Shown here in pieces: positions 24,001-27,000 of a DNA stretch of 34,131 bases (within the stretch, counting starts at the first letter, position 1; each line of letters starts with the position of its first letter). The stretch comes from a virus (taxonomy: Duplodnaviria > Heunggongvirae > Uroviricota > Caudoviricetes): the IMG/VR virus record IMGVR_UViG_2541047807_000011. One strand, given 5' to 3'. A program made the position numbers.

Positions 24001-27000
24001 TAGCCATTCGCCATACCGGGATTTCTTTCTGCTGCGTGACAACAAAAAGCGCCCCGGCAAACGCGCCCACCACAACCCCGAAATCGGTATTGGTGAGAAG
24101 GCCAAACACACTGGCACCACCGATGGTGACTGCCACAGCTCCGCCGCCTGATAAGGGTTCAGACATGAGTTTCTCCTGTAAATCTGAGCCACTGACGGCC
24201 CGTAAATAACACCCGGTCAAAGGCACAGAATGACTTTTGCCGGGCGCTATCCCTTAAGGTGTCTTGTGGTCTGAGTGGACAGGGTAAACGGTATGCTGTG
24301 GTGGGTACTGCTGGGGGTGTTCAGCACCCCCAGCAGGTTGATTATCTGGATGGGTTAAAGAGAAGCGAGTTTTAATGGTGGCTTATAACATGCCCGCGCC
24401 AGCAGGTTAGCTCTTTCCACGGCATTACGCATTTCCCGTTCCGCGTCAATCATTCTGTTTACGGCTGACAGCACTTCATCATGATTCGTTACTGATTCCG
24501 GGCTTTGGGCCTGTTTCGCCAGGTAACTGGATAAACTGCACATTTCAGCATGTCGGCGACGGGCTGCATCCCGGGCCTTGTCTGAAAATGCGGTATATTC
24601 ACCGAGCACTGCATAGTCGATATCGGTGTCAGAACGCATCATTTCGTGTCTCCTTTTTTCTGAGGCCCATTAATCAAAAAGCCCCACCTGGGTGGGGCTT
24701 TTCAGCGAAGTCTGTTTTTGTCGTCGGTGTATCAGCTGCCATGCGTACCGGTCTGAAATGCCGTAACGGGGACAGAGCAGTGCCAGCGCCTGCCGGTGTG
24801 AGCATCCGCCTTTTACATGCTGCTGTAAATCAGCCATAAAACGGGTGTTACGCAGGGCACGTAACGCATGATCGCAACGGGGAATGTAAAACGGTGCGCC
24901 GCCAAGAAAACGGATCAGTTTGTTGATTTCGTCTTCGGTCAGCACGTCATGTAACAGGGCATGGACACCGCCGGTGCGTTCGGCGTGTACGCCGGTTTTA
25001 CCGCTTAACGTCACGCCACCAAAAGAACGAATCAACCGGGTCAGGGCGGGGAAGCCAATCACGCTAATCAGTTGCTGCACGGAATCGGGCAGCAGTGCCT
25101 GCGCATCGCGAAGATCTGTTTCACTGAAGGTCTGCATGATGGCGTCTCCGGTAGTAACTTACTGTTATTATAGCCATACATGATCGCCTGTACAGACCAC
25201 AAAAAAAGCCCCTGCATGGCAGGGGCTAAACTAAGTCTTATTTAGTCAGGTCTAGAATAACCAGGCCTTTTCTTGATTCTATTTGCTCTTTACCAAAAAC
25301 AAACGAATCAAAACAATCCATACGATATTCTTTAAACTGATTTCTTGAACGCTCCAGAAACTGCCTGTCATCCCTGATAACGTTAGACCAGTAATCCTGT
25401 AGCTGGTTTTTCATTTTTATGCAGGAACCATACACAGGATCAAGCGGGTCGTCCCCCAGTTTACTGGCCTGTTCATCCAGTTGTTTTAGTCCTTTTTTGA
25501 TATTCTTCCACTCTTCAATATTTCCCTGCTGATACTGCGATGCCGCTTCTGGCATAGCGTAATAAAGTTTTCCACTTTCCCGAAGCATCTGTTCAGCCAA
25601 TGGCTTCATATCCTGATAACGTTTCAGTTCCTTTTGCGCCTGTTCCTCTGTCTGTGCCAGCACAGAACAAGAGAAAATAACCCCTACTAAACAAAACAAC
25701 CATTTTTTCATCATTGATTTCTCCTTCTTGAATCTTTAACCAGCGCCACCATCACTCCAAAAAGCTGTTCATCCGTCAGCCATTCGATCACATGTTGCTT
25801 ATACATGTGAGATGCCAGTCCTTCCGCATACGCCCAGGAACGACCGGCATCAGCCAGCAACGCTTCAATTTTGGATAATATCGATTTTCTGCTCATTGCA
25901 ACACGGGGGCGGCGACCTTTACCGGCGGGTGCCTTGCGCGGAAATCCCTGTTCATGCATGTATTCCCGGATGATGCGCAGTTCATCGAGGTTGCAGCGTG
26001 TGGTGCTGGTTTTACCGGTCAGGCGGGCCAGCGTCTGGCGATAAAGGACATCATCCCACCCCAGATACGCCTGACCGGCTTTAATGGCTCCGATCATCTT
26101 TTTCAGCATGTTTGTTATCCTCAAAACGCACGGTAAAACGTGAAACGCCAATCCCTGACAAGAACGCAGCGGCACGGTCAAGAGACAGCCATGTCTTGTA
26201 ATCGCCACGGCGTTCCTGTAGAAAATAGGACACCCCGGCGCGGCGATTCACAGCGAATAGATGATACACACCACCGAACCGCTGCACGACAAACTCATCC
26301 ACGCCACCGCTTTCAGCCTGTTGCCTGAAAGCTGTCATTCCGATTTGTTCAATCTTCATAATGACCAAAACATCACTTTTGGCAGACCAAAACATATGTT
26401 TTGGTCTGCTATTGGTTATTATTAAATTACTTTGCGTTAGTGTGATTCTTCCAGCGATTTTGTGTCGCGCTTCTGTTTCGCCAGACACCGTAAAAACGAA
26501 TAGAGGACCACTCCCTAAAACCAAGATATCTATAGCGAACAACAAGTCGATTTGAGATACGGATAAGTTGCCCTGGCTTTGCTATTAGCAGTCTTGCCTT
26601 ACGGTTTTTCATCATTTTGCTCTCCTGCGTTTCTTTGCTTCGCGTCGTGCAGCTGCAATACCGGTATGGCGCTTTGGTGCCGGGATGATGCTGTCAGCCA
26701 TCAGGGCATGCGGCTTTGCAATTAGCGCAGAAGCCCAAAAACGAGTCGGGTATGGTAATAAACCGATAAACGCTACACGCATTACGCACCTCCTTTGGCG
26801 TCAATATTTACAGCCTGGCAAGCCTCGTTGAGCACCCAGTCAACCGCGTCTTTCCATGCTCCGGTTTCGACTGGCGGATTCTCACACTTTACCTGTTCAT
26901 AGAAACGCACTGCTTTAACTAGTCCTTCCGGCACTACCGACGCTGGCGGGGCAGCATAAAGCTCATGCATTCCATCAGGTAGCAAGTGACCTACATACTC

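Follow-up and report, generated by a model that had tools for sequence, protein, structure and literature searches.

A predicted secreted four-helix-bundle protein encoded in the gemA-mor exchange slot of a Mu-like prophage

Spackle (gp61.3) of phage T4 is an early, signal-peptide-exported alpha-helical bundle of 75 amino acids (aa) with one disulfide, which inhibits the tail lysozyme gp5 stoichiometrically and blocks superinfection (PMC7677548). Here, an open reading frame (ORF) of 158 aa was analyzed whose product is similar to Spackle in its anatomy and which is located on a 34,131-nucleotide stretch of Caudoviricetes DNA (IMG/VR record IMGVR_UViG_2541047807_000011), the whole of which is referred to as the window. 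The window is a Mu-like (transposable) prophage of the FluMu/SuMu type that reads on the minus strand. We are confident that the ORF is a real gene, that its product is a predicted Sec-exported protein cleaved to a soluble 16-kDa periplasmic four-helix bundle (4HB) with two invariant cysteines, that it is the last gene of the early operon, coupled to gemA and just upstream of the operon terminator, and that it belongs to an old, fast-diverging family of Mu-like phages that is always found beside mor and whose place in Escherichia coli is an exchange slot.

With Spackle, the window protein shares the early gene position, the predicted cleavable signal peptide and the predicted helical bundle. 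However, no sequence or fold match to Spackle was obtained, the mature protein comprises 138 aa instead of 75, and Spackle originates from a virulent T-even phage, whereas the window protein is encoded by a temperate transposable phage. The ORF can further be compared with the morons (Hendrix/Juhala; lambda bor and lom, HK97 gp15), as it is dispensable, differs in composition from the two backbone genes beside it and comes in addition to these, which are direct neighbors in relatives. In contrast to a moron it was found to have no promoter of its own, is coupled to gemA, uses the terminator of the operon and lies within the early lytic operon, and its family, old and confined to phages, does not stem from a single import. 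A previous reading of the DNA (the sequence-only reading) had proposed a moron with its own terminator. It was partly supported: the features it named are real and the class of function it suggested is sensible, and an accessory insertion of distinct composition at the early-to-middle junction, absent from collinear relatives, was indeed found, but the moron picture needs correction: no separate promoter was found, and the terminator is not the ORF's own.

The closest entries in databases are two protein families, phrog_29261 and phrog_30411, which hold remote branches of the ORF family (Klebsiella phage ST405-OXA48phi1.1, E 2e-93; Brenneria P0036, 2e-64; P0017, 5e-8 and 9e-10). Profile comparison tied these branches to the window protein (hhalign 94.8%, E 5e-8), with both Cys and the Trp aligned. 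The window protein itself, however, matches no PHROG at E <= 0.1, and the two PHROGs carry no functional annotation. The inner-membrane spanins (i-spanins) of the lambda Rz type are similar in having about 150 aa, an N-terminal hydrophobic segment, a helical periplasmic part, two Cys and, in some lineages, a position near lysis genes. An i-spanin was rejected nevertheless: the ORF has a 13-residue hydrophobic region and an AxA site instead of a membrane anchor and a closed bundle instead of an extended coiled coil, no embedded or adjacent Rz1-like ORF (>=40 aa) is present, a genuine Rz (PF03245) is encoded elsewhere in two family-bearing loci (L007, L009), and 35 of 58 relatives lack the ORF. 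Lysozyme inhibitors (Ivy, MliC/PliC, PliG) were ruled out by the all-helical fold, as these proteins are beta-rich; the sole match of this kind, to the NCBIfam model 'C-type lysozyme inhibitor' (E 0.12, 12 bits against a cut-off of 168), covered the signal peptide region only.

The last ORF of the early operon

The coordinates of the ORF and its neighbors are collected in Table 1. From mor to the upstream end of the mechanical gemA ORF, which reaches 26208, the window (24670-26208) is 99.0% identical to a prophage of enteropathogenic E. coli E2348/69 (L001), and the stretch of the 158-aa ORF is 99.8% identical. Within the ORF no further ORF of at least 40 aa is found on either strand. Between two E. 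coli alleles a ratio of nonsynonymous to synonymous divergence (dN/dS) of 0.15 was obtained, indicating purifying selection. The ORF had been described as conspicuously AT-rich, and the windowed GC check bore this out: its GC content is 0.405 (0.409 at third codon positions), compared to 0.542 in the rest of the window, which places it in the lowest 0.03% of 477-bp windows, with one comparable island at ~28.8-29.3 kb.

Translational coupling to gemA was confirmed as well. The start codon of the ORF (ATG, 25714-25712) overlaps the stop codon of gemA (TGA, 25713-25711) in an ATGA junction (25714-25711), and an AAGGAG Shine-Dalgarno sequence (25727-25722) is located within the 3' end of gemA, 7 nt before the start of the ORF. 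In a consensus-based scan no sigma-70-like site was detected from the gemA start to the ORF, which thus does not qualify as a self-contained moron.

Ten bases past the stop codon of the ORF begins a stem-loop (25227-25207, minus strand) with seven of nine pairs being G-C, followed by seven T. It folds with -17.6 kcal/mol (z -3.2), and none of 200 shuffled sequences was as stable. The textbook intrinsic terminator that had been noticed here is thus real, whereas its assignment to the ORF did not hold. In an E. coli prophage with an empty slot (L006), the same hairpin, AGCCCCTGCC-N-TGCAGGGGCT, lies 6 nt past the stop codon of gemA. An unrelated hairpin with a T-run was found at the same place in L002, L003 and L004; this second type (CCTCCGC-AAAC-GCGGAGG, -18.4 kcal/mol) stands behind the second allele of the family and behind an unrelated 112-aa cargo, and neither type is limited to a single cargo. 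Because the cargo-less locus has the identical hairpin and hairpin types are common to different cargos, the terminator is that of the early operon and not the ORF's own, and its function is conserved through replacement of the sequence.

As the last ORF ahead of this terminator, the ORF is by position an early gene. The early lytic operon of Mu is repressed in lysogens. The cassette at the 3' end of the operon uses the ribosome traffic and the terminator of the operon. On the other side of the terminator, a promoter-like site precedes mor, and its spacing (TGTACA-N16-TATAAT) is retained in Salmonella (L010, L014) and Edwardsiella (L013) lineages. Phage Mu lacks a terminator at this place, its gemA and mor genes overlapping. 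As a side observation, mor appears to be a separate transcription unit in the window (24670-25230), with the terminator at 25227-25207 before it, the promoter-like site at 25194-25167 and a second strong hairpin with a T-run at ~24702-24676 (-18.6 kcal/mol) lying over its last codons.

Table 1. Coordinates of the ORF, its neighbors and the states of the gemA-mor slot. SPase I, signal peptidase I; AF2, AlphaFold2. Positions refer to the window unless a locus is named.
Feature	Position	Strand	Basis or remark
158-aa ORF, predicted secreted 4HB precursor, accessory cargo of the gemA-mor slot	25238..25714	-	ORF call, dN/dS, AF2, family
Signal peptide, residues 1-20, predicted SPase I cleavage VLA/QT	25655..25714	-	Hydrophobicity, -3/-1 rule
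Mature domain, 138 aa, 16.4 kDa, pI 5.7	25241..25654	-	
Translational-coupling junction, Shine-Dalgarno and ATGA overlap	25711..25727	-	
Intrinsic terminator of the early operon	25200..25227	-	9-bp G+C-rich stem, 3-nt loop, T7
Promoter-like TGTACA-16-TATAAT upstream of mor, right-hand slot boundary	25167..25194	-	100% conserved in five slot variants
gemA (gp16 family), upstream early gene	25711..26109	-	PF06252, E 3.8e-18; RefSeq start gives 132 aa, CDS 399 nt
mor, middle-operon activator, downstream neighbor	24670..25137	-	PF08765
MuA-type transposase	31853..33895		Best phage matches <50% identity
Slot state: ORF family			23/58 genomes; 12 with the window allele, 11 with an allele 77-78% identical in DNA
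Slot state: unrelated 112-aa secreted protein	L004 2068-2406	-	12/58 genomes; phrog_5882, weak Sel1-like repeat (E 0.026)
Slot state: unrelated 174-aa secreted protein	L005 2080-2604	-	5/58 genomes; phrog_19473
Slot state: empty			18/58 genomes; gemA, then terminator and mor directly

The predicted N-terminus of the protein, MMKKWLFCLVGVIFSCSVLA followed by QTEE, was assessed by rules only. It consists of an n-region with KK, an h-region of ~13 residues (Kyte-Doolittle peak 2.7) and V-L-A at positions -3 to -1, so that the n-, h- and c-regions and the VLA/Q site obey the rules for a clear signal peptide, as had been proposed. In the alignments, AxA-type cleavage sites are present at the equivalent position in every family member. 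A lipoprotein was rejected, since IFSC differs from a canonical lipobox and C16 is not conserved: P0003 and P0005 have F instead, and distant members lack it. The two cysteines of the mature region are C98, as noted before, and C134, which had been numbered C135; C8 and C16 lie within the signal peptide.

Across 15-18 aligned members only G87, C98, W109 and C134 are invariant, with K37 and G64 being near-invariant, and no acidic, His or Ser residue is conserved. AF2 was run with an alignment of 18 sequences and predicted a 4HB with a mean predicted local distance difference test (pLDDT) of 86.7, a predicted template modeling score of 0.75 and a core above 90. The four helices comprise residues 5-62 (~21-62 after removal of the signal peptide), 67-86, 96-114 and 117-149. 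C98 on helix 3 and C134 on helix 4 lie 17-18 residues to each side of the turn between these helices and therefore could pair as a disulfide. The C-terminus carries a conserved strand-like tail, [LIV]x[IVA][IV]x[LVF], which could be a partner-binding strand; the pLDDT of the tail is ~54 and its last nine residues are of low confidence. Top structural neighbors were periplasmic 4HB sensor or ligand-binding domains of chemoreceptors and histidine kinases (6db1, HK9, TorS, QseE, Tsr, Tar, NarQ). The prediction of structure and the fold searches thus yielded a 4HB with generic bundle matches only and no annotated family. The fold is generic, and the conservation of solely structural residues suggests a binder rather than an enzyme.

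Distribution of the family and the gemA-mor exchange slot

A word-indexed search of 5.8 billion proteins yielded nine full-length relatives of 64-99% identity and one frameshifted copy, from E. coli, E. albertii, Salmonella and Yersinia enterocolitica. When 1.84 billion cluster representatives were scanned exhaustively with HMMER, 11 relatives only were returned, among which members at 26-47% identity were new; further ones, from Xenorhabdus, Klebsiella, Brenneria and E. coli, were recovered by profile searches. Edwardsiella tarda also has a family member, and one Salmonella cluster was present on more than 1000 contigs. A search with the closer alignment found six prophage contigs in IMG/VR and none in species-representative genomes. 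When the window protein, P0011 and P0017 were compared by tblastn with 50,697 phage genomes, no match was obtained; members in isolated phages were recovered solely by synteny and profiles. The window protein had no match in Pfam, NCBIfam, PADLOC or Protein Data Bank (PDB) sequence profiles. Pfam gave no consistent family over 15 members, and PADLOC matched neither the window protein nor four relatives or two alternative cargos of the slot. Literature searches on the RefSeq protein accession, or on E2348/69 together with the Mu-like prophage, returned nothing. The ORF family is uncharacterized, but accessory secreted proteins of phages are a known kind of element.

Family members have ~140-172 aa and all carry a signal peptide; length, signal and the two Cys are kept down to 16-30% identity. 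Each of the ~16 distinct contexts that were examined was a Mu-like prophage with the family gene beside mor, and the family spans two bacterial orders, with members in the Enterobacterales and the Pasteurellaceae. The order GemA-ORF-terminator-Mor was found in E. coli, Salmonella and Edwardsiella. In the same gemA-mor slot, Haemophilus phage SuMu (L030 8593-9447) encodes a homologue (local hidden Markov model (HMM) search, E 3.7e-9; hhalign 95.6%, both Cys and the Trp aligned), which the SuMu paper does not discuss. It is annotated as SuMu_15 (284 aa, labeled COG3023), which is over-extended by 105 codons: the real start is codon 106 (MKKSLLCLF...), giving ~179 aa with a signal peptide.

The alternative order GemA-Mor-ORF was observed in Xenorhabdus, Klebsiella (including the isolated phage ST405-OXA48phi1.1), Brenneria, another E. 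coli lineage (P0034) and uncultured samples. In this group the ORF starts 8-11 nt past mor, and endolysin or lysis genes come next. In the record of the Klebsiella phage, mor (L022 5305-5775) is unannotated, so that with SuMu_15 two database annotations are corrected here. After the ORF, this group shares a conserved CCACTGAACCCCTTCA motif, followed by a hairpin abutting the next start codon (L007 8469-8560, L008 8454-8532, L009, L022, L025, L026), in otherwise diverged prophages of Xenorhabdus, Brenneria, Klebsiella and E. coli. In the window the motif has 11 matches with at most 2 mismatches against 3.0 expected, and no exact match. By analogy with Mu, CCACTGAACCCCTTCA is a candidate Mor-dependent middle promoter. 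If it is taken as such, the ORF is the last or next-to-last early gene in both arrangements.

The family is not part of every Mu-like phage. It is absent from Mu, Yersinia phage Tongde and Pseudomonas phage VW-6B and hence is no core gene at this position, as the sequence-only reading had expected; the local HMM detected no member either when run on the initial 15 kb of two further Mu-like phages of Klebsiella. The family is an ancient, dispensable companion of mor, neither core gene nor outsider.

The backbone around the slot was then surveyed in E. coli with a gemA-ORF-mor query, sorting the states of the slot by the length of the match span and checking them on annotated examples. It is uncommon, being present in 58 of 5426 complete genomes, and four states of the slot were distinguished (Table 1). 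Both alternative cargos have SPase I signal peptides and, like the ORF family, exactly two mature Cys, and they are AT-rich as well (GC 0.38 and 0.43). Alignment of five variants delimited the variable block, which begins within the last ~ten codons of gemA and reaches up to the terminator stem. Starting with the T-run, ~85 nt including the promoter-like site and the mor leader show 100% identity among the five. Frameshifted or truncated copies are present in some E. coli genomes (P0010, 106 aa; P0012, 66 aa), consistent with the gene being dispensable in the lysogen.

Alleles of the ORF have a history apart from that of their flanks. Between the window and an E. coli prophage (L002), GemA and Mor are 99% identical with a synonymous divergence (dS) of 0.02 and 0.06, whereas the ORF product is 70% identical with a dS of 1.29. 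Similarly, Mor and GemA of two Salmonella loci (L010, L014) are 99% and 97% identical, while the slot proteins share 33%. Given a dS of 1.29 compared to 0.02-0.06 in the flanks, old alleles must have been exchanged as whole cassettes between near-identical backbones, and rapid evolution of the alleles in situ was ruled out by the same values. Low GC was found in all nine family loci measured, at 0.07-0.18 below the flanks; it therefore gives no date of acquisition, and recent import from an AT-rich donor was ruled out. The separate horizontal acquisition that had been proposed thus holds with regard to the separate history, with 18 of the 58 slots empty and 17 occupied by unrelated cargo, but not with regard to low GC as a mark of outside import.

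Possible functions of the secreted protein

Divergent alleles in near-identical backbones are typical of specificity determinants at phage-phage or phage-host interfaces. We tentatively favor, by analogy to Spackle, that the protein may be an early-expressed, non-enzymatic periplasmic factor of superinfection exclusion. It would be made early after induction or infection, perhaps also at a low level in lysogens, and would attach to something that competitor phages need for passage through the periplasm, for instance a hydrolase of the cell wall associated with their tail, or else a penetration or receptor component. The envelope of the infected cell would thereby be guarded from competing phages, and differing alleles would have differing target specificities. 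Several points weigh against this exclusion reading. All members are annotated as hypothetical, and no homology to Spackle or to known exclusion proteins was found in Pfam, PHROGs, NCBIfam, PADLOC or PDB sequences. Swapping of alleles also fits lysis genes, which are mosaic in the same prophages (GH108 versus M15 endolysin in near-identical backbones), and a role in lysis could instead be indicated by the many lineages that have the endolysin or lysis genes right behind the ORF.

Such a role, in which the protein would assist the lytic cycle of its own phage at the envelope, being made ahead of the switch-on of the lysis genes and regulating lysis timing or envelope integrity in the periplasm, e.g. 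by binding holins or spanins or by sensing superinfection like T4 RI, appears unlikely but deserves most attention among the alternatives. In the Xenorhabdus, Klebsiella, Brenneria, E. coli (P0034) and uncultured branches, mor is followed first by the ORF and then directly by the endolysin or lysis cassette, the family stays in the mor and lysis neighborhood across Enterobacterales and Pasteurellaceae, and lysis genes are exchanged mosaically in these phages, as is the ORF. In the window, however, a terminator, mor and a second terminator separate the ORF from the lysis genes, 35 of 58 close relatives have the same holin and endolysin genes but lack the ORF, and unrelated secreted proteins replace it. 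It also is independent of the endolysin class: family-bearing phages have GH108, M15, GH24, GH19 or Amidase_2 endolysins along with differing holin families, and by these five classes an endolysin-specific regulator was ruled out. Improbable is lysogenic conversion, in line with the sequence-only reading, that is, a moron expressed from the repressed prophage for the benefit of the host (envelope modification, serum or stress resistance, exclusion). The distinct composition and the absence from collinear relatives would agree with it, as would the 252-bp non-coding gap with a weak promoter-like site (26446-26418, minus strand) upstream of the gemA block and the low-level transcription from the early promoter, or constitutive gem expression, in Mu lysogens that is hinted at in the literature (PMC3820752, citing Paolozzi & Ghelardini 1992). 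Against it stand the lack of an own promoter, the ATGA overlap with gemA and the terminator of the backbone, the confinement of the family to Mu-like phages with a fixed place in the lytic programme, and the frameshifted and truncated copies P0010 and P0012 in lysogens.

An orphan periplasmic immunity protein, which would protect the lysogen against a periplasm-acting toxin (type VI amidase or lipase, colicin, pesticin-like muramidase), was judged decidedly improbable. A small secreted helical protein with two conserved Cys and surfaces highly diverse between alleles would suit this function, and a weak Sel1-like repeat, a feature of some type VI immunity proteins, is present in one alternative cargo. 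Yet none of the ~16 contexts has a toxin or secretion-system gene nearby, all being Mu-like prophages, no immunity family was matched in Pfam or NCBIfam, and the few relatives from the HMMER scan were in prophages wherever their contexts were examined. It seems a far-fetched idea that the protein is a decoy of a periplasmic 4HB sensor domain of the host that sequesters a ligand or partner lipoprotein and blunts an envelope-stress or signaling response. Such domains (Tar/Tsr, TorS, NarQ, QseE, HK9) are its best structural neighbors and reside in the same compartment, but the similarity is that of bundles in general, the window protein is soluble and outside of any receptor, and no sequence relationship exists. 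That the ORF is a non-functional chance frame in an AT-rich spacer, for which nothing speaks apart from the lack of annotation, is effectively refuted by the dN/dS of 0.15 with saturated dS, the conservation of length, signal peptide and two Cys to 16-30% identity, the confident AF2 fold and the strong Shine-Dalgarno sequence.

Going beyond Spackle-type exclusion by a single protein, the 3' end of the early operon of FluMu/SuMu-type phages might, rather speculatively, be a dedicated exchange site for small secreted proteins with two Cys, with at least three unrelated families and an empty state in E. coli. The 4HB family might then be a new class of periplasmic specificity factor of phages against phages or toxins, the alleles of which would each neutralize a different component of an invader. 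If exclusion is true, the slot would represent a hot-swappable periplasmic exclusion cassette in Mu-like prophages of E. coli, Salmonella, Klebsiella and Haemophilus, host ranges in phage therapy and competition between phages would be affected, and the protein would be the second structurally defined periplasmic exclusion protein after T4 Spackle. Although few E. coli genomes carry a Mu-like prophage of this backbone, more than 1000 Salmonella contigs bear one branch of the family, as described above. Even without a function, the slot provides a bounded natural experiment, with one backbone, four slot states and very divergent alleles.

Other features of the prophage

Apart from the transposase (Table 1), the window encodes a MuB-like ATPase, DUF3164, DUF2786, GemA and Mor proteins, two holins, a GH108 endolysin, DUF1804, the large terminase subunit (terL) and a Mu-type portal. 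An Rfam scan of the whole window gave no match. In this backbone the endolysin is exchanged, being GH108 in the E2348/69 prophage (L001 3826-4371) and an M15 metallopeptidase in L003 (1993-2370), with holins, mor and gemA nearly identical. L001 and L003, but not L002, have a DNA methyltransferase gene that separates DUF1804 from terL. From the endolysin swap and the variable methyltransferase, it follows that the backbone has several exchange points.

The semi-essential early region is also mosaic. The small early genes at ~27.3-28.1 kb (27270-28140) differ in number and size from the annotation of E2348/69 (L001), with which the window is therefore not identical. A second AT-rich island lies at ~28700-29300 in the early region, with a GC content of 0.40-0.42 in 477-bp windows, comparable to that of the 158-aa ORF; the matching area of E2348/69 harbors the sole opposite-strand gene of its early region.

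The AT-rich 252-bp non-coding gap (26360-26611), which lies within the early operon and contains the weak promoter-like site mentioned above, further harbors a perfect 28-bp palindrome (26382-26409; half-sites GCAGACCAAAACAT and ATGTTTTGGTCTGC) just upstream of a 92-aa ORF that precedes gemA. This palindrome could be an operator or another protein-binding site. It is exactly kept in L006 and L017-L019, but not in every relative.

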